DNA of 40,315 nt, taken from the IMG/VR virus record IMGVR_UViG_2541047797_000007. One strand, written 5' to 3'. This DNA comes from a virus. Taxonomy: Duplodnaviria; Heunggongvirae; Uroviricota; Caudoviricetes. Below the pieces are notes generated by a model, which did not search any database, was not told the DNA's origin, and saw only the letters and a list, made by a program, of their open reading frames with translations. This document shows positions 6,122-40,315 of the stretch, one piece after another; the stretch's first letter is position 1; each line of letters opens with the position of its first letter. A program made the position numbers and the translations under genes.

Positions 6122-6210
6122 ATTTACATCGCACTCCTCTTGTGCCATAGTAATCGGGCACTGGCAAAATCCAGTGCCGGGATTGGTCTCCCGGATTACT
6201 AAGTGGCGCA

Positions 6211-6236
6211 TACCACGCCAGACGTGGTTTTTTTAT
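6211..6236 (+). terminator. Intrinsic terminator / attenuator in the ant leader
   Basis: Hairpin ACCACG-CCAGA-CGTGGT followed by TTTTTTTA; preceded by further stem-loops at 6140-6200. Confidence 0.5.
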
Positions 6237-6392
6237 GCGTATAGCACAGTCATGCCAGAATTATGGTGGGCTGAATGGGGGTCCGAAAGGACGCCGGTAC
6301 CACTTAGGCCGGTAAGACCAACTCCGTTCAGTTCACCACCATCTGATTGGTCTCAGCGGTGGTGATGTAATTCGCTAAGTGGAGACGCCATC

Positions 6393-16310: not shown

Positions 16311-18772
16311 CAGAATCCCCCAACAGTAAGGCGAGGAATAACGGCAAGAACAGACAGCGGCAACGGGTCAAGCTGACGGATTCTTACACGTCCGTTTTTG
16401 CCCCAGTTACTGTCCAGTTTCACTTCTACTTTTCCGGTAGCGTCATCAACAGGATCATCGTAGAACTCGAATTCACGCTGTGGATATTCGTACCATTTAC
16501 CGCCGGGCGTAGTCGCCCAGATGCCGCGGCTGGCATTCACAACCAGAGTAACGGATGGGATCACCTGTTTTTTGTCCAGCAGCGTTTCCTGTCCGTTAAT
16601 GTTGATATCCAGTGTTTCGAATTCAGCAGTTATTGGCAGGCCGATGTGCACTACAGCCCCCGGTGATTCCAGCGTGACGGCACCTCCGGAAACTACTTTC
16701 TGTGGTTCCACGTTCGCATCAGAGAGGATGTTTACGGTCTGACCTTCAAGATGAGACAAGCCGCCAAATGCCCGGCGCGCCATCTGCCAGTTCGTGGTGG
16801 CCACATTCCTGAGGGATGGCGGGACGTTCCTGTTAGCACGAACCACTACAGCGGTGTTGCTGGTTACAGAAATAATGTCGCAACGTAATTCTTTTGCGCC
16901 AGTATCAGGATCAGTTCCGGTATAAGGGAACTGTAGTTGCGCACCGACATCACTACTGGTGAAGTACGCACCACCAGAAATACTGATTGTATATTCCGCG
17001 CGGTAATCCCATTCGCCAGAACCACCAGTGATGGTCATCGTTCTGTCAGACGTATTTCTTCCATCATAGCTAAGGCCAGAATCAACAAAGAAAGCATCTT
17101 CATCGCTGGTAAATAAACGGCTGGACAGTCGCTCGATGTATCTCACTGTTTGCCCGTTAACGGTTCGGTTAACGACGAAATACACCGCATCTTCATTGCC
17201 TTCGCTGATACTGCATGTGCTTTCATATTTTCCGGTACTGGATTGTGGTGCCCATGCAAAAACCTGCTGATCACGCAAATAGGTCATCACCAGTAATTTA
17301 CCGTCATCACGAATGCAGAAGGCGCTGGAGTAAGGGACAATCGAGAAGCACCAGTCAACAATGCTGTGCTTCTGAAAAAGATGATTGGCAAGGATAGTCA
17401 GGTCGTTCCCCTGATAGCCGTCAACATCGAATGAGTAGGCCAGATCACGGACAACACTGCCTTTCTCCTGGACGAACAGAGCAATATTCGCTACGGCAAT
17501 TGGTGGGACATTACTCGAGCCATTTGATCCCTGAGAGCTGAATGCAAATGATGATGGGGTTAACACTTTGTTCTGGTCGCCGGTGATGACGTACTCACCT
17601 CCGGAAGTCAGCGCCACCAGAGAACCAACATCAATCAGGTGACGGATCTCATTAACCTGACGCCCGGCATAGGTGTAGATAATTCTGTCGTCATCCTGCG
17701 TAGGATTGCTTTTGCCAAAATCCTTATAATCACCGGTACGGCTGGCCCAGATAGTCTGAGGGAACGCAGTCGATGCGGCGAAGTAAAGACGTTGTTGATA
17801 ATAAACAACAGTGCCAGGATAACCATTAACACTGTTCCAGGCATATTTAGCCCATTTATAGCTGGCATTATCCTCGCCCACGACCTGCGAAGGGATATAG
17901 GAAATCACCTCGGCAGTTGCAGTAGTTCCATTTGCAGCAGTGATACGGGCAATGCCAAAACCACTGTGCAGATATTCCCACTCAATGCCAGTATCATCAT
18001 CACCGGATCCGCCCCAGCCATCCCATGATGTGCCTTCTGTATGCGAAGGGCGCAAAGTACCTGTTTTGCCTGCTGTAACGGCGCGATAGTAGTTACTGTC
18101 TGCACGGCGAATATCGCCAATCGACGTACTCTTACTGGTTTCCCATACCGGCACAGAATCCACTGCAGGCTGTTCCAGATAGAACAATTTGCCTGCCTGC
18201 TCCGCGCCAAAAATAGAGGCGCTTGCCGTTAACGTAATTGTCCCGGTGCTGGCGCTGGCATAAACCGTCACTGACTCATCAATATTGATATCTTCAAATG
18301 GCCCGTTCTTCGTTACCACATCAACCAGTTGCCAGTTGTCATGCGCATAGCGGCGCAGCTCTTTCGGCGGGTATGCCGGGTGAACCAGCGTAAGCACGTC
18401 GGCGCTTTGCGTGAATTTAATTCGGAACAGATCGGCTTCAGTATATGGCGTGGCAATTTCATAAATAACATTGCTGCTGTTCAGCACCAACGCACCATCT
18501 TTGATAACGCGCATGTACTGGTGTCCGAACTCCAGAGCATAGGTCTGAACCGTCGAGAACTGGAACGGGATCAGGCGGCATTTCCGATTTGGGTATTTGG
18601 CGGCACCAACAAAACGCGTACCAGGTCGATTCTCAACGCCGCCATACTGTCGCACGATAAAGTTATCGCACTTGCGCAATGCCACCTGATACTTCGCCAT
18701 GTCGATACGACCGTACAACGACGGTCCAATCTCACCACCGGCAAAGCTGGGCTGGATCCAACTGATAGCCAT
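16310..18772 (-). CDS. Tail tubular protein B-like (nozzle) protein, 820 aa
   Basis: A roughly 200-aa protein followed by a roughly 800-aa protein, as with T7 gp11/gp12; N-terminus MAISWIQPSFAGGEIGP. Assignment by architecture, not a measured match. Confidence 0.5.
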   Translation of the reverse strand: MAISWIQPSFAGGEIGPSLYGRIDMAKYQVALRKCDNFIVRQYGGVENRPGTRFVGAAKYPNRKCRLIPFQFSTVQTYALEFGHQYMRVIKDGALVLNSSNVIYEIATPYTEADLFRIKFTQSADVLTLVHPAYPPKELRRYAHDNWQLVDVVTKNGPFEDINIDESVTVYASASTGTITLTASASIFGAEQAGKLFYLEQPAVDSVPVWETSKSTSIGDIRRADSNYYRAVTAGKTGTLRPSHTEGTSWDGWGGSGDDDTGIEWEYLHSGFGIARITAANGTTATAEVISYIPSQVVGEDNASYKWAKYAWNSVNGYPGTVVYYQQRLYFAASTAFPQTIWASRTGDYKDFGKSNPTQDDDRIIYTYAGRQVNEIRHLIDVGSLVALTSGGEYVITGDQNKVLTPSSFAFSSQGSNGSSNVPPIAVANIALFVQEKGSVVRDLAYSFDVDGYQGNDLTILANHLFQKHSIVDWCFSIVPYSSAFCIRDDGKLLVMTYLRDQQVFAWAPQSSTGKYESTCSISEGNEDAVYFVVNRTVNGQTVRYIERLSSRLFTSDEDAFFVDSGLSYDGRNTSDRTMTITGGSGEWDYRAEYTISISGGAYFTSSDVGAQLQFPYTGTDPDTGAKELRCDIISVTSNTAVVVRANRNVPPSLRNVATTNWQMARRAFGGLSHLEGQTVNILSDANVEPQKVVSGGAVTLESPGAVVHIGLPITAEFETLDININGQETLLDKKQVIPSVTLVVNASRGIWATTPGGKWYEYPQREFEFYDDPVDDATGKVEVKLDSNWGKNGRVRIRQLDPLPLSVLAVIPRLTVGGF

Positions 18773-32913: not shown

Positions 32914-33498
32914 ATGAAAAGTATCCAGGACGTCCGCAGGCAAAATCTCAACGACTTGATCGACCGTGAATTCAATGGTGTTCAGACGCGGATGGCAGAA
33001 AAACTTGGAACTCAGGCAAATCTGGTAAACCGCTGGGCTCTTGGCAAGAAGGTTATCGGCGACCAGGTTGCGCGAAAAATTGAAGCTGCCGCCAATAAAC
33101 CCCGTAACTGGCTTGATATCGATCGCTCGCTTTCTCAGGAAGGTTTTCAGCCTGTCGGCCCAAGCGACATTGGTCAGCTGGCGGCTCACAACCTAGAACG
33201 CTGGATGAGCGAAAGCCGCGACCTTTCAACGCAGGGAAAACTTCACCGCGCATCCGGCGTCGCCCAGGTGACAATCAGCCGCCTGTTAAACAATGAGGTC
33301 AGTGTTTCCATTTCCACCCTGGAGAATGTTGCATCCGCATTCGGGCGTCACGGCTATGAATTACTGATTCACCCGCACGACCCTGCGACCATCAACTATG
33401 ACCGCTCGCGCTACGCATTGTTACCTGAAACAGAGAAGGCAAAGATCGAAAGTTACATTGAATTTGTCATCAGCCAGAACGAAAAAAACAAACAATAA
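32914..33498 (+). CDS. CI-like repressor candidate with two HTH domains and no S24 peptidase domain
   Basis: Two HTH-like segments (MAEKLGTQANLVNRWALGKK and ASGVAQVTISRLLNNEVSVSISTLENVA); divergent from the Cro-like gene; followed by an intrinsic terminator; no Ala-Gly/Ser-Lys autocleavage module visible. Confidence 0.6.
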   Translation: MKSIQDVRRQNLNDLIDREFNGVQTRMAEKLGTQANLVNRWALGKKVIGDQVARKIEAAANKPRNWLDIDRSLSQEGFQPVGPSDIGQLAAHNLERWMSESRDLSTQGKLHRASGVAQVTISRLLNNEVSVSISTLENVASAFGRHGYELLIHPHDPATINYDRSRYALLPETEKAKIESYIEFVISQNEKNKQ

Positions 33499-33518: not shown

Positions 33519-33545
33519 AAGCCGCCTCATGGCGGCTTTTTTATT
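33519..33545 (+). terminator. Rho-independent terminator after the CI-like gene
   Basis: Hairpin GCCGCC-TCAT-GGCGGC followed by TTTTTTATTG. Confidence 0.75.
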
Positions 33546-33555
33546 GCCTGTGCGA

Positions 33556-33570
33556 TTACCTGATGGGTAA
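33556..33570. promoter_or_regulatory. Operator-like site TTACCTGATGGGTAA upstream of the early-left promoter
   Basis: Perfect TTACC-N5-GGTAA, 20 bp upstream of the -35 hexamer. Confidence 0.6.
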
Positions 33571-33589
33571 TTTTTTTAACTCATATCTA

Positions 33590-33617
33590 TTGACATCAAA
33601 CCAGATACGCATAATTA
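33590..33617 (+). promoter_or_regulatory. Candidate sigma-70 early-left promoter
   Basis: TTGACA at 33590-33595 and TAATTA/ATAATT at 33611-33617 (15-16 bp spacer), with an operator site overlapping the -10 and start region. Confidence 0.55.
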
Positions 33618-33632
33618 TTACCTCAACGGTAA
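33618..33632. promoter_or_regulatory. Operator-like site TTACCTCAACGGTAA overlapping the early-left promoter
   Basis: Perfect TTACC-N5-GGTAA directly abutting the -10 element. Confidence 0.6.
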
Positions 33633-33651
33633 CAGACCGAGGTAACAAGTT

Positions 33652-33801
33652 ATGCAGTGGAAAATCATCAACGGTTGGTACTGCGTTACTGCATGCGGAT
33701 TCATGAGCTGGAAGTTCCGCACCTTACAGGAAGGCATTAAGTGGGCTTTCGTCAGCAAAGAAGCTCGCGATGTGGCCAACGATAACGAGATATGGGAGTA
33801 G
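33652..33801 (+). CDS. Possible small protein (49 aa), first gene of the early-left operon
   Basis: Hand-translated MQWKIINGWYCVTACGFMSWKFRTLQEGIKWAFVSKEARDVANDNEIWE; SD GAGGT upstream; below the ORF-track cutoff. Confidence 0.4.
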   Translation: MQWKIINGWYCVTACGFMSWKFRTLQEGIKWAFVSKEARDVANDNEIWE

Positions 33802-33809
33802 GTTAGCAA

Positions 33810-34844
33810 ATGAGTGAATTATCAATCATCGAAATCACACCAGATATGGCACCAAGAATTTACGTTGAAAAAGGACTGGAAAAGTTTCTCGAGCAGATCC
33901 GTGAAGGTGTTAATGAAGTGCCTGACATTAGCACAGACAAAGGCAGAAAGCGCATTGCATCTCTGGCTGCGAAGGTTTCAAGAAGTAAAACAGCGGTAGA
34001 AAAACCAGGACGTGATTATCTGAAACGCCTGAAAGAACAGCCGAAAGTAGTTGAAGCAGAGTTACGACGCTTCGTAACCGAATGCGATCGGCTTCGTGAT
34101 GAAGTACGCCGCCCACTCACCGAGTGGGAAAATGCTGAGAAATTACGCACTGAAGCACTGCAACAACGCCTGACAAATTTGCGAGCACTGGCTGACGTGA
34201 TCGATCTCTCCGGAAACTACTTGCCATCAACTGATATTCAGGAACGAATTCAAGAGGCTAAATCAGTAGCACTTGATGAGAGTTGGCAGGAGTACGCAGC
34301 AGAAGCTGGAGTAGCCAAGGATTCAACCATCCAGAAACTGGAAGAATCACTCGCAGTAGCTCAAAAACGCGAGCATGAAGCCGCTGAGCTGGAGAGACTT
34401 CGCAAAGAAGCGGAGGAAAAAGCGCGCATTGAGCGAGAAGAGAATATCCGCCGGGAAGCTGCTGAACAGGCCAGGCTCGAAGCTGAACAAAAAGCGAAAG
34501 CTGAAATTGATGCTGCGGCACGCCTAGCGGCGGAAGAGAAAGCACGTGCTGAAGTAGCAGAACGTCAGCGAATTGAAGCAGAGCAGCGTGCACGACGCGA
34601 AAAAGAAGAAGCCGTTGCCGAGGAACGCCGACGCCAAGAGGAGGCAGAAAAAGCCCGCATTGAAGAACAGAAGCGTATCGCCGACGAAGAAGCGCGCCGA
34701 GCTGCGGATAAAGAGCATCGCCGTACCGTTAACCGCAGAGTAATCGCAGATCTGATAGCCCAAGGCATTCCCGAAGAATTCGCGCAGAAAGCAATGTTGG
34801 CTATCGCTGGCGGCAAAGTGCAGGACGCGTATATCAAATATTGA
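33810..34844 (+). CDS. Hypothetical protein with long charged coiled-coil repeat region (E/A/R/K-rich)
   Basis: SD GGGAG upstream; C-terminal half consists of AEEKARxE-like heptad repeats; function unknown. Confidence 0.55.
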   Translation: MSELSIIEITPDMAPRIYVEKGLEKFLEQIREGVNEVPDISTDKGRKRIASLAAKVSRSKTAVEKPGRDYLKRLKEQPKVVEAELRRFVTECDRLRDEVRRPLTEWENAEKLRTEALQQRLTNLRALADVIDLSGNYLPSTDIQERIQEAKSVALDESWQEYAAEAGVAKDSTIQKLEESLAVAQKREHEAAELERLRKEAEEKARIEREENIRREAAEQARLEAEQKAKAEIDAAARLAAEEKARAEVAERQRIEAEQRARREKEEAVAEERRRQEEAEKARIEEQKRIADEEARRAADKEHRRTVNRRVIADLIAQGIPEEFAQKAMLAIAGGKVQDAYIKY

Positions 34845-34845
34845 G

Positions 34846-35151
34846 GTGGGTATGAACGTTAATCAGCAGAAAAATCTTCAAAAAATCATGCTGGCATTCG
34901 ACAAGGACTACCGCCTGTCAGAACAGCTATATGACCGACAAGTTGAACTGATTGAGAGTATCCGGCTTCATCAACTGGCATCAACTTTCGACGTTGTAAC
35001 AGTTAAAGGCGTTCGCCAGGAAGTACTGGAGGCCGCTAAAGACAGCCCTGAGTTCGAAGAACTAATGGATGCCTACCGGCGCGAGGCAATGGCTATTATC
35101 GCCCGCTGGGATCTGGCTGATCAGCTTGATGGGCAGAGGGACGCGGCATGA
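34846..35151 (+). CDS. Hypothetical protein (101 aa)
   Basis: Coupled ORF between the coiled-coil protein and the small HTH protein. Confidence 0.45.
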   Translation: MGMNVNQQKNLQKIMLAFDKDYRLSEQLYDRQVELIESIRLHQLASTFDVVTVKGVRQEVLEAAKDSPEFEELMDAYRREAMAIIARWDLADQLDGQRDAA

Positions 35152-35354
35152 AACCAACACTCCTCTCATTGCTGCGAGGTGGAAAACACAGCATCCGAGA
35201 TATGGCAAAGATTCTTGGTATCTCAAGATCGAAGGTTTCTTGGTTCATCGCTGAGCTTGAACGTCGCAAATGGGTAGAGGTAACCAGGAGCGCAATATAT
35301 TTCCACGATGGAACCCGTTCCAACAAGCAGAACGAATACAAGGTTAAGTTATGA
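35148..35354 (+). CDS. Small winged-helix/HTH-like DNA-binding protein
   Basis: Segment SIRDMAKILGISRSKVSWFIAELERRKWVEV resembles a winged-helix HTH; ATGA overlaps on both sides. Confidence 0.45.
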   Translation: MKPTLLSLLRGGKHSIRDMAKILGISRSKVSWFIAELERRKWVEVTRSAIYFHDGTRSNKQNEYKVKL

Positions 35355-36172
35355 ATACTGGCATCTATTTCGACATCAGCAATGAGGACTACCACGCCGG
35401 TGACGGCGTGAGTAAGTCGCAACTGGACATGGTTGCCAAGAATCCGGCGCTTCTTAAATGGGTTCAGGCAGCACCAGAAGACGAAGAGAAAAAGTCTGCA
35501 CTGGATATGGGAACCGCATTGCACTGCCTGCTTCTGGAACCTGGAGAATTCGACAAACGCTTCATCGTTTCACCGAAATTCGATCGTCGGACAAAACAAG
35601 GTAAAGCTGACGAAGAAGCATTTCTTCGTGATGTGGCGGATATGGGTATTACGGTACTTGATGTCGAGCAGTGGCGAAAACTGGAGCTGATGCGTGATAG
35701 CGCAATGGCTCATCCGGCGGCACGCTGGATGTTGGAAGCACCTGGTTACTGCGAAGCATCAATGTACTGGAACGATGAAGATACGGGTGAGTTGTGCCGA
35801 ATTCGTCCAGACAAATGGCTGAACGAGCACAACGTGATCGTCGACGTGAAAAAGGTTACAGATATGGACCGTTTTGCACGTCACATCGAGGAATTCCGCT
35901 ACCACGTGCAGGACGCAATGTACCGCGAAGGCGCAATGAGAGTTACTGGTCAGCCGCATGGTTTTTTCTTTCTTGCCGTGAGCGAAAGCATTGATTGTGG
36001 TCGGTATCCGGTACGCGTGTTCGAGCTGGATGCGCCGGATGTCGATGCCGGGCACGCTCTGTTCCGCCGGGATCTGAATACCTATCACGAATGCCGCATC
36101 AACGATGAGTGGGGCGGAGTGGAAATTATTAAACGCCCTGACTGGGCACGTAAACAGGATATGTACGTATGA
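35351..36172 (+). CDS. PD-(D/E)XK-family exonuclease (recombination exonuclease partner of the annealase)
   Basis: Immediately upstream of and overlapping the Bet-like gene; acidic/Lys motif region (..IRPDKWLNEHNVIVDVKK..) consistent with a PD-(D/E)XK nuclease. Confidence 0.6.
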   Translation: MNTGIYFDISNEDYHAGDGVSKSQLDMVAKNPALLKWVQAAPEDEEKKSALDMGTALHCLLLEPGEFDKRFIVSPKFDRRTKQGKADEEAFLRDVADMGITVLDVEQWRKLELMRDSAMAHPAARWMLEAPGYCEASMYWNDEDTGELCRIRPDKWLNEHNVIVDVKKVTDMDRFARHIEEFRYHVQDAMYREGAMRVTGQPHGFFFLAVSESIDCGRYPVRVFELDAPDVDAGHALFRRDLNTYHECRINDEWGGVEIIKRPDWARKQDMYV

Positions 36173-37050
36173 GCAATGATATCGCAATCACATCACAACC
36201 AGGCGCAACTGTAGGTACTGCTGCGGCAATCTTCAGCCCGGAGGGCATGAATCAACTGGTGCGTTTCGCGGAGTTGATGTCACAAAGCAAAGCGACTGTA
36301 CCGAAACATCTTAAAGGCGAACCTGCCGATTGTCTGGCGGTGACCATGCAGGCGGCACAGTGGGGAATGAATCCTTTCGCCGTGGCGCAGAAAACGCATG
36401 TGGTAAACGGAACGTTAGGCTACGAAGCACAGTTGGTAAACGCGGTCGTATCCTCTTCCAGCCTGCTAGCGACACGCCTGAATTATCGCTGGAGCGGTGA
36501 CTGGTCGAATGTTAACGGCAAAACAGATAAATCACCGAATCTGACGGTAACTGTGTCAGCAGTTCTTAAAGGAGAAGCAGAACCCCGTGAGCTTACCATC
36601 AGTATGGCGCAAGCCGGAGTGCGTAACTCTCCATTGTGGGAACAGGATCCGCGCCAGCAGCTTGCCTATCTTTGCACGAAACGATGGGCTCGCCTGCACG
36701 CTCCTGATGTACTTCTCGGTGTTTACACCCCTGACGAATTACAGGAAACGGCACCGCGCGTTGAGCGAGACATTACTCCGCAAACGACCACTGCTGCGGG
36801 AATGAACAGTCTGATCAACGCTAAACCAGCGAAAAAGCCTGATGAGCAAACGCGTAAAGCGGATAGCCGTGATCCAGAAGAAATGCTGATGGCCTTTACC
36901 AGCGCAGCGATGAATTACAGCACTGTCTCCGAACTGGATAAGGCTTACAAATACATTGCACAAAAACTTTCAGATGATGACGAACTGCTGGCAAAAGCAA
37001 CCGACGTTTACAGCGTTCGTCGGGAAGAATTAAACGAAACATCTATGTAA
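36169..37050 (+). CDS. Bet/Red-beta-like single-strand annealing protein
   Basis: Segment NSPLWEQDPRQQLAYLCTKRWARLHAPDVLLGVYTPDE parallels lambda Bet (TGPWQSHPKRMLRHKAMIQCARLAFGFAGIYDKDE) as I recall it. Confidence 0.7.
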   Translation: MSNDIAITSQPGATVGTAAAIFSPEGMNQLVRFAELMSQSKATVPKHLKGEPADCLAVTMQAAQWGMNPFAVAQKTHVVNGTLGYEAQLVNAVVSSSSLLATRLNYRWSGDWSNVNGKTDKSPNLTVTVSAVLKGEAEPRELTISMAQAGVRNSPLWEQDPRQQLAYLCTKRWARLHAPDVLLGVYTPDELQETAPRVERDITPQTTTAAGMNSLINAKPAKKPDEQTRKADSRDPEEMLMAFTSAAMNYSTVSELDKAYKYIAQKLSDDDELLAKATDVYSVRREELNETSM

Positions 37051-37099
37051 CCACCACCGCGGCGCCACGTGCGCCGCACTGCAACCAAGAGAGGTATTC

Positions 37100-37348
37100 A
37101 TGAAAGGTGCATTAGGTAAGAAAGAACTCCTGGCGGTGGTGCCACTGTCATGGAGCACTATCGACCGTATGGAGCGCGCAGGGGAATTTCCTAAACGCTG
37201 GTATATCACCGATAAACGCTGCGCATGGAACCGTGATGAAGTTGAGCGTTGGCTTGATGAACGTCAGGCAGCAAGCCCGGCAGAGTTCCAGGGTAAAAAG
37301 CCTCCTGTTCAGCAACGTGTATATCGTCCCGTGAGCAACGCTGCATGA
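37100..37348 (+). CDS. AlpA-family regulator / excisionase-like protein
   Basis: Pattern LLAVVPLSWSTIDRMERAGEFPK...WNRDEVERWL matches the AlpA/Xis-type MerR-like HTH family. Confidence 0.65.
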   Translation: MKGALGKKELLAVVPLSWSTIDRMERAGEFPKRWYITDKRCAWNRDEVERWLDERQAASPAEFQGKKPPVQQRVYRPVSNAA

Positions 37349-37457
37349 GTGCGCTGCTAAGGCACTGGAGCAAATGGTCAGGATGGTACTTATTCCTGGC
37401 CTCTGTTTCAGCATGGCTTTATCTGCTGGCATTAATTTTCAGAGAGGGTTGGATTAA

Positions 37458-37757
37458 GTGAGAAAGTTAAGCCGACTTGAAAAATATCACATGAATAAGG
37501 TTTCAATGCGCAGTCCGTCAAAGATTGTCGCCGTTACTCCTGCGGCGATAGAGATCGAAAAACGCGCGATTGAAAGAGAGAAAAAAGGGCAATTCCGCAT
37601 TGCCGCTCACCTTTGGCTTCAGTGTATGGATGTTGCTTCTGGTGATGTTGAACGTGCAAGGATCGCGGTTCGCAGGGGCCAATGTATCACAAAAGGTAAC
37701 GGCCTTCGCCGTGGCGACTATAGCGGCATAGGATGTTGTGTGGTGGTTTATGACTAA
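37458..37757 (+). CDS. PerC/ANR-like transcriptional regulator candidate
   Basis: Segment GQFRIAAHLWLQCMDVASGDVERARIAVRRGQC resembles the PerC family signature; GTG start in the track, true start uncertain. Confidence 0.45.
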   Translation: MRKLSRLEKYHMNKVSMRSPSKIVAVTPAAIEIEKRAIEREKKGQFRIAAHLWLQCMDVASGDVERARIAVRRGQCITKGNGLRRGDYSGIGCCVVVYD

Positions 37758-38400
37758 GAAATACACACTAATCTATGCAGATCCACCCTGGGTATACCGG
37801 GACAAAGCCGCAGATGGTAATCGCGGTGCCGGTTTTAAATATCCGGTTATGAGTGTGCTGGATATCTGCCGCCTTCCTGTGTGGGATTTGGCCGATGAAA
37901 ACTGTCTGTTGGCCATGTGGTGGGTGCCAACACAACCACTCGAAGCACTAAAAGTTGTTGAAGCCTGGGGATTCCGTCTGATGACGATGAAGGGCTTCAC
38001 GTGGATAAAATGTGGTAGTCGACAACCAGATAAACTGGTTATGGGTATGGGACACATGACTCGCGCCAATAGTGAAGATTGCCTGTTTGCGGTAAAGGGA
38101 AAACTACCTACGCGCATTAATGCAGGGATCGTTCAGTCATTTACCGCACCGCGGCTTGAGCATTCAAGAAAGCCAGATATCGTTCGTGAAAAACTTGTGC
38201 AATTATTAGGCGATGTTTCTCGCATTGAACTGTTCGCCCGCCAGACGTCTCATGGCTTCGATGTTTGGGGTAATCAGTGCGAAGACCCGGCAGTGCAACT
38301 ACACCCTGGATACGCGTTGGATATCGGCGGATTAACAAATGCATTCAGCAATGCTCCGCTGTCACCAACAGACAACCAGGGGCGGGAGCGTGCAGCATGA
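37750..38400 (+). CDS. DNA N6-adenine methyltransferase, MT-A70 family (DPPW motif)
   Basis: Motif LIYADPPW near the N-terminus; start placed at the ATG at 37750 ([14 protein letters not shown]); stop overlaps the next gene start (ATGA). Confidence 0.8.
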
Positions 38401-39056
38401 ACCTATATCAACGCATCAATGGCGCTGACTGGTGCAATATCTTCGTCGTCGGCGATCTGCATGGGTGCTACACGCTGCTGATGAACGAACTCGACAAAGT
38501 TTCATTCGACCCGGCGCGCGATTTGCTTATTTCCGTTGGTGACCTTGTTGACCGCGGCGCTGAAAACGTCGAATGCCTGGATTTGATTACTATGCCGTGG
38601 TTCCGAGCTGTTCGTGGCAACCATGAGCAGATGATGCTGGATGCACTGGTCAACGGCGGAAGTTTCGGACATTGGATGTCAAACGGCGGTGGATGGTGGC
38701 ACCAACTTGATTCTGAGCAGGATGTGCAACTCAAATACCTTCTGCCAAAGGTTACCAACCTCCCGATGATTATCGAACTGGTTACCGGCAATAAGAAGGT
38801 CGTCATCTGCCACGCAGACTACCCGCACAACGAATACGCATTCGATAAGCCAGTACCGGAAGAAATGGTGATATGGAATCGTGAGCGGGTTAGCGACGCG
38901 CAGGACGGTATTGTCTCGGAGATAACCGGTGCCGATTTGTTCATCTTCGGTCATACGCCAGCACATCACCCACTGGTGTATGCAAACCAAATGTACATCG
39001 ACACCGGCGCAGTGTTCTGCGGAAATCTGACGCTTACCAAAGTCCAGGAAGGATAG
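38397..39056 (+). CDS. Serine/threonine protein phosphatase (calcineurin-like metallophosphoesterase)
   Basis: Metallophosphatase motifs GDLHG, GDLVDRG and GNHE; start placed at the internal ATG ([12 protein letters not shown]), not at the track start. Confidence 0.8.
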
Positions 39057-39058
39057 AA

Positions 39059-40315
39059 TTATTTATTACTGTCTTCCATCCACTTCTCAAACTTCGACGG
39101 GGAGAACGGAATCAGATCCGTATGCTCCCCGTTAATCCAGGAATCAATCATATCGGCCCACTGCTGCAACATGTAGGCGCGCTGTCTGGCGTATTCCGCT
39201 TTGTTATATACGGCGCGCACACCTTTCTGCTCGTGTGCCAGAGCCTTTTCAATCCAGTCTGAAGGATAACCAGCCTCATGCAACAATGTACTGGCTGTAC
39301 GGCGCATATCATGTACAGTAAAATCCTGAATATGCTCACCATCTTCATTTATTATTTTCACCGTTCTGTCGATCAGAGAGTTCAGCGCGGCATTAGATAA
39401 TGGCTTCCGGAAATTGTAACGACCAGGAACCAGATATTCACTTCCACCAGCGCACATCTGCAACCCGACTAATATATCCTGTGCCTGTTTAGGCAGGTAA
39501 ATAACGTGCGCCCGACTTCCCTTCATGCGGTCTGAAGGAATTGTCCATGTCCATTTTTTAAAATCTATTTCATCCCACGTTGCATTGGTGAATTCTCCCT
39601 TACGAACCATGGTGATAAGCACCAGCTTTAAAGCCATTTTCATAGTGCCCATAGCACCAATGGCATCCAGCGTGCGGAAGAACAGGCCAATTTCTTCTGG
39701 TGTCAGTGTTCGCTCTCGTGGTTTAAATATGGCGATAGACGAAGGTTTAATGTCAGCCGCAGGATTAAACAAACCATGACCACGGTCATTGGCGTGACGG
39801 TATACGCTGCTGATGATCTCCCTGGCCTGTACTGCTGTTGCCCGACCACCGCGTTCGACAATCCGGTCACACAAATCACGAACCATTGATGTGGTAATTT
39901 CAGCCATCATTTTGTTGCCAAGAACCGGAAGTATGTCACGGTCGATCACCGCCTGCTTCATTGCGCGGGTACTGTCAGCCAGGATGACGTGTTTCATATA
40001 ACTGTCGGTATGTACCGCAAACGTCTCGGCACCACGAATCTTTTTAATACCGTCACGTTTAGCCGCAGCCGGTGACTGGCCTGCTTTAAGCAGCTTCTTT
40101 GCAGCAATCAGTTCTTCTCGCGCTTCTGCCAGGCTGATACCGTCACGCCCATACTGCCCGATTACCAGTGTTTCGCGGCGACCGTTGATACGGTAGTCAT
40201 AGCGAAACGAGACCGTGCCTGACGTAAGCACAGCTACATACAGCCCGTCACGATCGGAGACCTTGTACAGTTTGTCCTGCGGCTTGAGGTTTTTTAATTT
40301 TGTATCGGTAAGCAC
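39059..40315 (-). CDS. int: Tyrosine integrase (P4-type), 5' end cut by the window edge
   Basis: N-terminal LTDTKLKNLKP motif typical of P4-like integrases; C-terminal catalytic region with HDMRRT..LLHEAGY..HE..VRAVY. The window ends at or just after the first codons, so the true start and att site are not visible. Confidence 0.85.
   Translation of the reverse strand: MLTDTKLKNLKPQDKLYKVSDRDGLYVAVLTSGTVSFRYDYRINGRRETLVIGQYGRDGISLAEAREELIAAKKLLKAGQSPAAAKRDGIKKIRGAETFAVHTDSYMKHVILADSTRAMKQAVIDRDILPVLGNKMMAEITTSMVRDLCDRIVERGGRATAVQAREIISSVYRHANDRGHGLFNPAADIKPSSIAIFKPRERTLTPEEIGLFFRTLDAIGAMGTMKMALKLVLITMVRKGEFTNATWDEIDFKKWTWTIPSDRMKGSRAHVIYLPKQAQDILVGLQMCAGGSEYLVPGRYNFRKPLSNAALNSLIDRTVKIINEDGEHIQDFTVHDMRRTASTLLHEAGYPSDWIEKALAHEQKGVRAVYNKAEYARQRAYMLQQWADMIDSWINGEHTDLIPFSPSKFEKWMEDSNK

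Follow-up and report, generated by a model that had tools for sequence, protein, structure and literature searches.

Organization of the integrase-proximal block

The block at 37100-39056 was placed at the integrase-proximal end of the early-left operon in a phiV10/epsilon15-type prophage (Uetakevirus, following the taxonomy given in the matching phage records), where four of its five genes belong to the genus core and the fifth, a lambda-type phosphatase gene, occupies an exchangeable slot. The window, that is the whole analysed stretch of 40,315 nt, comes from virus record IMGVR_UViG_2541047797_000007; tRNA genes were searched for in the window and Rfam families in the block, with no match in either case. 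In the RefSeq chromosome context the prophage adjoins guaA. The block is an already annotated region of a common E. coli prophage type and the finding is an ordinary one: the same gene names stand in phiV10, PAS61 and RefSeq E. coli records, and the block was matched, partly or entirely, in 641 of 5426 complete E. coli genomes. Phage vB_EcoP_PAS61 (PAS61, OQ921333) shared 98.2% nucleotide identity across the entire block, phosphatase included, and phiV10-type phage records shared 95.6-99.1% with its first 67%.

Direct reading of the sequence gave five + strand genes with consecutive overlaps of 4-8 nt, in order ATGA (AlpA-like stop and start of the 38-aa gene), GTGA (stop of the 38-aa gene and GTG start of the PerC-like gene), 8 nt (PerC-like and MT-A70 genes) and ATGA (methyltransferase stop and phosphatase start), and all five converge on a P4-type integrase. 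The AlpA-like, PerC-like, MT-A70 and Ser/Thr phosphatase genes named in the preliminary description were all recovered on the + strand at the positions given below, with family matches far above chance, and its gene list had to be extended by a 38-aa membrane peptide at 37345-37461. Minus-strand open reading frames (e.g. 37148-37432 and 37773-38117) lie wholly inside strongly supported + strand genes.

The order AlpA-like, 38-aa, PerC-like, MT-A70 was the same in phiV10, epsilon15, Tyrion and BUCT711, with 62-100% amino-acid identity, and the phages sharing it infect four genera (Escherichia, Salmonella, Enterobacter and Klebsiella). The AlpA-like, PerC-like, MT-A70 and phosphatase genes had been called cargo. 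The term suits the phosphatase, which sits in a variable slot, and does not suit the AlpA-like, PerC-like and MT-A70 genes, nor the 38-aa gene between them, given their genus-conserved order.

Transcription signals and predicted expression

Directly upstream of a terminator-like hairpin with a T-run (33519-33538, +; 8-bp stem with 6 GC pairs, then TTTTATTG) lies the repressor gene (32914-33498), and in phiV10 a terminator is annotated at the equivalent place. A candidate early-left promoter with two repressor-operator palindromes was identified at 33555-33633 (+) by consensus scan and direct reading. It consists of TTGACA at 33590, a 17-nt spacer and AATTAT ending at 33618 (10/12 consensus matches), flanked by the palindromes ATTACC-N5-GGTAA(T/C) at 33555-33571 and 33617-33633. 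Ten such palindromic sites were counted in the window against 0.2 expected, and the same motif is annotated as repressor binding sites in the epsilon15 RefSeq record. Upstream of the block, the genes at 33810-34844 and 35148-35354 are extra here and absent from phiV10 and strain AZ146.

A simple consensus scan, by which an internal promoter driving some of the genes in the lysogen could be missed, revealed no + strand promoter-like site after 33590-33618, and the same kind of scan showed nothing terminator-like on the + strand from 33538 to 40081, so that the distal position in a long same-strand early operon assigned to these genes in the preliminary description was borne out. A conserved GC-rich hairpin without U-tract follows the recT stop and precedes the start of the AlpA-like gene (37059-37077, +). 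It is composed of GCGGCGC, a 5-nt loop and GCGCCGC, with -17 kcal/mol and a z-score of only -1.4. It is kept in 5/5 phages; in epsilon15 the stem is preserved via changes in both arms (GTGGCGC/GCGCCAC), and the RefSeq record labels it 'stem-loop; transcriptional pausing'.

The integrase-proximal end of a repressor-controlled early-left operon in a Uetakevirus prophage is the best explanation of the block as a whole, and probably the right one. Transcription would start at the promoter-like site at about 33590-33618, which in the lysogen would be blocked by the phage repressor at both flanking ATTACC-N5-GGTAA(T/C) operators. During induction or infection the transcript would pass recE/recT and the conserved hairpin, then the five translationally coupled genes, and would finally read antisense into int. 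Because the sole candidate promoter is flanked by repressor operators, the block genes should be silent in the lysogen; as internal promoter-like or terminator-like sites were likewise missing from the scan, expression is expected on induction or infection, which had been proposed before and is the natural reading. With silence expected in the lysogen, the methylome comparison of lysogen and cured strain suggested earlier would probably be uninformative, and a negative outcome would refute nothing.

The block could instead be lysogenic-conversion cargo, through which the lysogen would gain a new host (virulence) transcription programme from the PerC-like protein, altered host Ser/Thr signalling from the phosphatase and a changed host epigenome from the methyltransferase. 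The homology of the PerC-like protein to PerC is genuine, Pch/PerC homologues on horizontally transferred regions of EHEC regulate LEE, flagella and curli (PMC7369912), and the int-proximal slot of epsilon15 holds a serotype-conversion gene, a precedent for expression of a slot gene in the lysogen. Yet this reading is improbable, as the block holds no promoter-like site of its own beyond the operator-flanked upstream candidate, translational coupling ties its genes to the recombination genes of the lytic phase, its PerC match is limited in length, and lysogens do not express two other methyltransferases of prophages, M.EcoGI and M.EcoGII (PMC5778455). The host range of the conserved genes, considered with the PerC-like protein below, also speaks against it.

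AlpA-like protein, integrase and membrane peptide

The first gene (37100-37348, +) encodes an AlpA-family small DNA-binding protein of 82 aa, as indicated by Pfam Phage_AlpA (PF05930, 24.2 bits versus a cutoff of 21), PHROG 66 'excisionase and transcriptional regulator' (E 2e-16) and PDB 8c3t, an AlpA-family protein (E 1.8e-11, residues 2-59), on which a literature search found no paper. Identity across the genus is 78-100%, and gp33, its homologue in epsilon15, carries the annotation 'excisionase and transcriptional regulator'. The search against PDB gave no match to any experimentally validated excisionase.

A P4/IntA-type tyrosine integrase with Arm-DNA-bind_3, Phage_int_M and Phage_integrase domains was identified at 39059-40315 (-), convergent with the operon, with 2 nt between the stop codons and 29% identity to CP4-57 IntA over the full length (E 5e-48). 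From its membership in PF05930 and PHROG 66 and its IntA-like integrase partner, and by analogy with AlpA/IntA of CP4-57, the AlpA-like protein is rather likely to serve as the recombination directionality factor of the P4-type integrase, possibly as an activator too. Its gene, earlier taken for a cargo regulator, more likely belongs to the integration/excision module. An AlpA protein of P. aeruginosa works by transcription antitermination, and so a purely regulatory role is possible as well.

The 38-aa peptide (37345-37461, +) matched PHROG 17484 (E 2.6e-27) and is annotated as a one-helix membrane protein, the phiV10 annotation giving one predicted C-terminal transmembrane helix. With 68-100% identity in five phages, this putative membrane peptide is a core gene product of Uetakeviruses, and its gene was left without annotation in one RefSeq (PGAP) chromosome inspected.

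PerC-like protein

The third gene (37458-37757, +; GTG start) encodes a PerC-family protein of 99 aa, identified by Pfam, BLASTP and hhalign. It scored 29.6 bits against Pfam PerC (PF06069, cutoff 22.6), 25/25 family members matched as well, and the comparison with EPEC PerC gave 40% identity over 60 aa in BLASTP and a probability of 95.9% in hhalign. The protein covers profile positions 5-50 of 90, which is less than the full-length PerC architecture of about 90 aa. EAF-plasmid perC was not recovered when all plasmids were searched by tblastn with the PerC-like protein at E<=1, and the homology appeared only in the direct comparison. Within the genus the first 33 aa are conserved, unlike the internal Met codons chosen as starts in other annotations, so the 83-aa PGAP and 88-aa phiV10 forms look truncated.

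Three helices and no predicted HTH were present in the AlphaFold2 model, for which nothing significant was found among PDB folds (best E 0.29, to MIT/TPR-like three-helix bundles). Against the ANR model NF033650 the protein scored 22.2 bits, under the NCBIfam cutoff of 32, while 25/25 of its relatives matched the model with a best E of 9e-7, the one member shown in full being under the cutoff. EPEC PerC also matched the ANR model weakly (E 1.7e-3), and hhalign against Aar of EAEC 042 gave a probability of 0.7%. The ANR/Aar link was not adopted; at long odds, these weak but consistent matches might place the PerC-like family and EPEC PerC together in a single superfamily of small anti-regulators.

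To our knowledge, Salmonella, Klebsiella and Enterobacter lack LEE. Both the PerC-like and the MT-A70 genes are conserved in phages of these genera, which argues against lysogenic conversion, and LEE cannot be the primary target of the PerC-like protein for the same reason. The preliminary description had counted PerC-type regulators and Ser/Thr phosphatases among classic host-altering prophage genes, a label that fits poorly with a PerC homologue conserved in such phages and with a non-essential ninI in lambda. The chances are about even that the PerC-like product, a core protein with three predicted helices, influences the transcription of the phage or of the host in general and not LEE, probably by contacting other proteins. 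As it is core in all sampled Uetakeviruses and predicted to be three-helical without HTH, a phage origin of PerC and Pch may follow; that these EPEC/EHEC regulators go back to a general early protein of phages, whose binding partner would be a regulator of host or phage (e.g. a nucleoid-silencing protein) and not DNA, seems a long shot at present.

MT-A70 methyltransferase

An MT-A70 N6-adenine methyltransferase of 216 aa was found at 37750-38400 (+), its start being set at ATG 37750 in place of GTG 37738 in the open reading frame list. It matched MT-A70 (PF05063) with E 2.8e-22 over profile positions 1-172 of 172. The DPPW motif at residues 11-14 is invariant in five phages, identity in the genus is 77-98%, and a loop at residues 86-98 occurs in two allelic forms. 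A total of 516 phage records contain homologues, and the one Stx2a-type phage that was inspected likewise carries the gene near int. The gene is an orphan, with the PerC-like gene and the phosphatase gene as neighbours, no adjacent nuclease gene and no restriction-enzyme partner found nearby. Among the block genes PADLOC matched this protein alone, with generic methyltransferase models, of which the Type II model gave E 2.7e-77.

No characterised close homologue of the enzyme was found. The non-specific prophage enzymes M.EcoGI and M.EcoGII are unrelated to it, being beta-class with 349 aa and a DPPY motif, and the Drozdz enzymes, which belong to the alpha class, were likewise rejected as close relatives (PMC5778455); the non-specific adenine methyltransferases Hia5 and Hin1523 were rejected too, and M.EcoGIX, which is plasmid-borne, was set aside.

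We give an even chance to the protein being an active N6-adenine DNA methyltransferase which marks replicating phage DNA against host restriction. The enzyme might rather serve the phage's own cycle, through a mark for replication, packaging or transcription timing or through RNA methylation. In favour of this, it is conserved at 77-98% as a core gene in phages of four host genera which likely have different restriction systems, a breadth rarely shown by a gene that serves anti-restriction alone with one fixed motif, and the RNA enzyme METTL3 is among its relatives; but its closest relatives of known structure are DNA 6mA enzymes of ciliates, the PADLOC Type II match is strong, and the two loop alleles fit a diversified choice of target. 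A role in the phage's own cycle is thus held to be rather doubtful beside anti-restriction. The target may also be RNA, since JGI calls homologues 'RNA methylase IME4'.

Phosphatase and its cassette

The last gene (38397-39056, +), starting at ATG 38397 and not at GTG 38277, encodes a 219-aa orthologue of lambda protein phosphatase (NinI). It aligned with lambda protein phosphatase 1G5B over residues 1-217 (E 6.7e-100), including GDLHG, GDLVDRG, GNHE, the His of ICHADYP and the His of FGHTP, and matched PHROG 246 (E 1e-108); the gene shares 79% nucleotide identity with phi80 ppp and HK225 ninI. The protein fell short of the NCBIfam cutoffs for two Ser/Thr phosphatase equivalogs of chromosomal type, taken here to be PrpA and PrpB. 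With the catalytic motifs conserved, it is very likely to be an active Mn-dependent enzyme of the lambda-PP type.

The gene is carried on a 673-bp cassette (38403-39075), together with the last 4-5 codons of int, in place of the DUF1382 module of phiV10. The junctions are exact: identity to phiV10 stops just past GCAGCATGAAC and restarts at CCATCCACTTCTC, and the cassette junction in PAS61 is the same. The slot before int holds DUF1382 in phiV10, the phosphatase here and in PAS61 and BP9, a transacetylase repressor (lysogenic/serotype conversion) in epsilon15, and small hypothetical genes in Tyrion and BUCT711. Within the block, variable presence with sharp junctions, as expected of moron or cargo genes, was seen solely for this cassette. 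The phosphatase would have been acquired from a lambdoid nin region into the sole slot beside int that varies between phages.

We know of no in vivo role or substrate of the lambda phosphatase. Counter-defence, in which phosphorylation by host defensive kinases would be reversed, or RNA repair, in which 2',3'-cyclic phosphate ends left by defensive RNases would be processed, would explain the transfer of this cassette from one phage lineage to another. The gene is located in the nin region in phi80 and HK225 and next to int here, and its timing would be early lytic in both settings. Partial matches to Pnkp and RNA-ligase-associated phosphoesterase families were also observed, and the lambda phosphatase reportedly has 2',3'-cyclic phosphodiesterase activity in vitro (work of Keppetipola and Shuman in 2007). 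Against both roles, no defence or anti-defence model of PADLOC matched the phosphatase, its gene has neither a ligase nor a kinase gene as an adjacent partner, lambda does not need ninI on laboratory hosts, and a preprint on phage-phosphatase counter-defence deals with Macro-domain enzymes, which have another fold than the NinI type. Either role is accordingly regarded as rather unlikely.

Significance and comparison with known systems

The importance of the block is small beyond its correct annotation. Four of the five genes are genus core, and surveys of E. coli genomes should keep them out of the tally of virulence or lysogenic-conversion cargo. Annotation gaps concern the 38-aa gene, missing in one PGAP chromosome, and the PerC-like N-terminus, seemingly truncated in PGAP and phiV10 records. 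The slot between methyltransferase and int is an exchange point, and the pair of phiV10 (DUF1382) and PAS61 (phosphatase) offers a ready system for studying the phage role of the lambda-type phosphatase.

CP4-57 of E. coli K-12 likewise pairs a small PF05930 protein, AlpA, with a P4-type integrase, IntA, but the similarity of its AlpA to the AlpA-like protein is weak (32% over 28 aa), and the AlpA-like gene here stands four genes away from int on the opposite strand. A homologous core is shared with EPEC PerC (pMAR2) and EHEC Pch. Compared with EPEC PerC, the phage protein has a 33-aa N-terminal extension and is without the C-terminal third, and unlike perC and pch its gene is core in phages of Salmonella, Klebsiella and Enterobacter. 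Ciliate MTA1/AMT1 and METTL3 match the methyltransferase along the length of the catalytic domain and in the DPPW motif, whereas the phage enzyme is single-domain, about 190-216 aa, with no partner subunit gene nearby. Lambda NinI/ORF221 (PDB 1G5B) aligns with the phosphatase in full length with all metal-binding and catalytic motifs; its gene lies in the nin region of the rightward operon in a lambdoid phage, whereas the gene here ends the early-left operon beside int in a podovirus. Among the closest systems, with PAS61, is phiV10 (NC_007804, p36-p33), in which four proteins are 98-100% identical, with the same order, the same overlaps and a convergent int, and which differs in having a DUF1382 gene where the prophage here has the phosphatase.

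Gene organization and conservation of the block

Five plus strand genes were found by ORF listing and direct sequence reading between recT (36169-37050), which flanks the AlpA-like side, and the convergent integrase gene int (39059-40315, minus strand). They encode an AlpA-like protein (37100-37348, 82 aa), a membrane peptide (37345-37461, 38 aa), a PerC-like protein (37458-37757, 99 aa, GTG start), an MT-A70 methyltransferase (37750-38400, 216 aa, ATG start) and a phosphatase (38397-39056, 219 aa). The neighbouring genes overlap, in order, by ATGA, GTGA, 8 nt and ATGA, and 2 nt (39057-39058) lie between the stop codons of the phosphatase gene and int. The preliminary description had placed the block at exactly these coordinates, and the four gene identities it named were upheld by Pfam, PHROGs, NCBIfam and PDB sequence searches, while the 38-aa gene had been overlooked.

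Four Uetakeviruses, each from a different host genus, were compared for the block: phiV10 from Escherichia, epsilon15 from Salmonella, Tyrion from Enterobacter and BUCT711 from Klebsiella. All four shared the order recE, recT, AlpA-like, 38-aa, PerC-like, MT-A70, one small gene and convergent int. Across these phages, identity to the window proteins was 78-100% for the AlpA-like protein, 68-100% for the 38-aa peptide, 62-98% for the PerC-like protein and 77-98% for the MT-A70 enzyme. Such conservation of order and sequence across four host genera indicates that these four are genus-core genes and not strain-specific cargo. Most of the block, which had been described as cargo, is on this evidence core phage machinery.

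Two positions varied between the compared phages. One lies after the PerC-like gene and before the methyltransferase: nothing occupies it in the window and phiV10, epsilon15 has a 35-aa gene there, and Tyrion and BUCT711 have DUF1317, accompanied or not by a wHTH gene. Another is between the methyltransferase and int, where DUF1382 (phiV10), a serotype-conversion transacetylase repressor (epsilon15), small hypothetical genes (Tyrion and BUCT711) or the phosphatase (the window, PAS61 and BP9) were observed.

The full length of the block was 98.2% identical to Escherichia phage vB_EcoP_PAS61, and its first 67% matched phiV10-type phage records at 95.6-99.1% identity, among them TL-2011b, O157 typing phages 9 and 10 and, at 98.6%, phiV10; all matching phage records whose taxonomy was inspected belonged to genus Uetakevirus. 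Part of the block was matched in 641 of the 5426 complete E. coli genomes in RefSeq, and the whole block including the phosphatase in 143. Public records already name the products as AlpA-family regulator, membrane protein, PerC-family activator, adenine/MT-A70 methyltransferase and Ser/Thr phosphatase NinI. The earlier finding is a correct reading of a very common and already annotated gene block.

In strain AZ146 the prophage directly adjoins guaA, which is known as the target of the epsilon15 integrase cluster (PMC8138268). In the one RefSeq/PGAP E. coli chromosome inspected, that of AZ146 (L003, 6349-6507), the conserved 38-aa gene (window 37345-37461) is left unannotated, and the start given to the PerC-like gene lies 16 codons downstream of the conserved one (window 37458-37506). 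Two early-left genes of the window were extra, being absent from phiV10 and the near-identical AZ146 prophage: one (33810-34844, plus strand) encodes a highly charged, Glu/Arg/Ala/Lys-rich protein of 344 aa with no Pfam match, and another (35148-35354, plus strand) a 68-aa winged-helix protein, MarR/HTH_24-like.

AlpA-like protein and integrase

The AlpA-like protein scored above the Pfam threshold. It also matched 8c3t, an AlpA-family protein of solved structure, and PHROG 66, which is named 'excisionase and transcriptional regulator'; direct similarity to AlpA itself was weak. The window integrase is homologous to CP4-57 IntA over its full length, and in CP4-57, as Kirby, Trempy and Gottesman (1994) reportedly established, AlpA drives IntA-dependent excision. 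No other gene in the stretches inspected carried an excisionase-type annotation. Taken together, these points argue that the AlpA-like protein probably acts in recombination directionality. Its gene, which had been listed as a cargo regulator, is most likely a functional partner of the integrase gene.

PerC-like protein

By sequence, the PerC-like protein is a real PerC homologue in its core only, the Pfam PerC match covering profile positions 5-50 of 90. The N-terminal extension is conserved in the family, which shows the long GTG-initiated form to be the real one; the shorter forms annotated by PGAP (83 aa) and in phiV10 (88 aa) seem to be truncations. An AlphaFold2 model (mean pLDDT 72.8) had three helices in the conserved core; the model showed no helix-turn-helix and gave no significant match to solved folds. 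The NCBIfam ANR (AraC negative regulator) model was matched, with visible scores under the cutoff, by all 25 sampled relatives and by EPEC PerC (perC at 18487-18756 of the pMAR2 record L008; sub-threshold at E 1.7e-3, and spanning nearly the whole model, 8-52 of 54 positions). A profile comparison (hhalign) of the phage family with Aar was negative and did not back the PerC-ANR relationship at which these matches hint. Close relatives occur in phages of Salmonella, Klebsiella and Enterobacter, genera which to our knowledge lack LEE, so LEE activation cannot be the primary role.

MT-A70 methyltransferase

The MT-A70 enzyme carries DPPW and matches the domain over its full length. Among solved structures, ciliate DNA 6mA methyltransferases came closest (E 4e-13), with METTL3 behind (5e-6), and the PADLOC Type II methyltransferase model matched at E 2.7e-77. 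Hia5 and M.EcoGI/GII, initially considered as relatives, proved not to be so, and no characterised close homologue was found. Homologues were present in 516 phage records, among them >110 Stx2a-converting phages (~83% identity), and in the one inspected the gene is also near int, with DUF1382 next. No restriction-enzyme gene is adjacent to the window gene. Within the core, conservation is lowest in a 13-residue loop that occurs as two alleles, IKCGSRQxDKLVM in the window and HKTNKxKGNSAI in epsilon15 and most relatives. By comparison with METTL3 it corresponds to the interface/substrate loop, and we speculate that the alleles may differ in target choice.

Phosphatase cassette

In the phiV10 alignment, identity ends directly after GCAGCATGAAC, which consists of the methyltransferase stop codon, the ATG of the following gene that it overlaps and one more codon, and restarts at CCATCCACTTCTC within the last int codons, giving an exchanged piece of 673 bp (38403-39075). 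The phosphatase gene shares 79% nucleotide identity with phi80 ppp and HK225 ninI, both located in the nin region. The protein aligned over residues 1-217 with lambda protein phosphatase 1G5B (E 6.7e-100); the motifs GDLHG, GDLVDRG and GNHE matched up, as did the two catalytic histidines downstream of them, and the enzyme is almost certainly active. Two Ser/Thr phosphatase equivalogs of NCBIfam, taken here to be chromosomal PrpA and PrpB, fitted it best, but it fell under the cutoff of each and is classed as phage type for this reason. In lambda, ninI is dispensable (PMC10695390).

Expression of the block

The repressor gene (32914-33498) is followed by a terminator-like hairpin (33519-33538) and then by the top promoter-like site of an 8-kb scan (TTGACA, 17 nt, AATTAT; 33590-33618). 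This site is flanked by the palindromes ATTACCTGATGGGTAAT (33555) and ATTACCTCAACGGTAAC (33617), whose motif the epsilon15 RefSeq record annotates as the site of repressor binding. Chance would give 0.2 ATTACC-N5-GGTAAT palindromes of 17 bp (at most one mismatch) in the window; ten were found, spread across the entire prophage (5725, 7122, 24568, 27206, 27224, 30450, 30512, 32843, 33555 and 33617), so the repressor may bind many places beyond the early promoters. Rfam detected isrK (67.7 bits, 6158-6234, plus strand) and C4 antisense RNA (61.2 bits, 6259-6343, plus strand) above the gathering score; the pair looks like a P1/P7-type immI RNA control module, which would presumably control an antirepressor.

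A search of the whole window placed no operator palindrome inside 37100-39056, and the scan found no further plus strand promoter-like site downstream of 33590-33618 and, up to 40081, no plus strand terminator-like site. These results and the gene overlaps speak for a single early transcript under repressor control, the last stretch of which would read antisense into int. Expression would be expected only after derepression, so a lysogen-versus-cured methylome or transcriptome would probably be blank, and such a blank would refute no function.

A GC-rich hairpin without U-tract (37059-37077, plus strand) separates recT from the AlpA-like gene and is conserved in five Uetakeviruses; in epsilon15, whose record names it a pausing stem-loop, both arms are changed with the stem preserved. 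It may serve in pausing, processing or mRNA stability.

No terminator-like site was observed where the early-left operon and int (39059-40315, minus strand) converge, and with so short a gap between the stops early transcription would have to cross int antisense. In epsilon15 this junction is instead an intergenic gap that carries an annotated RNase III site.
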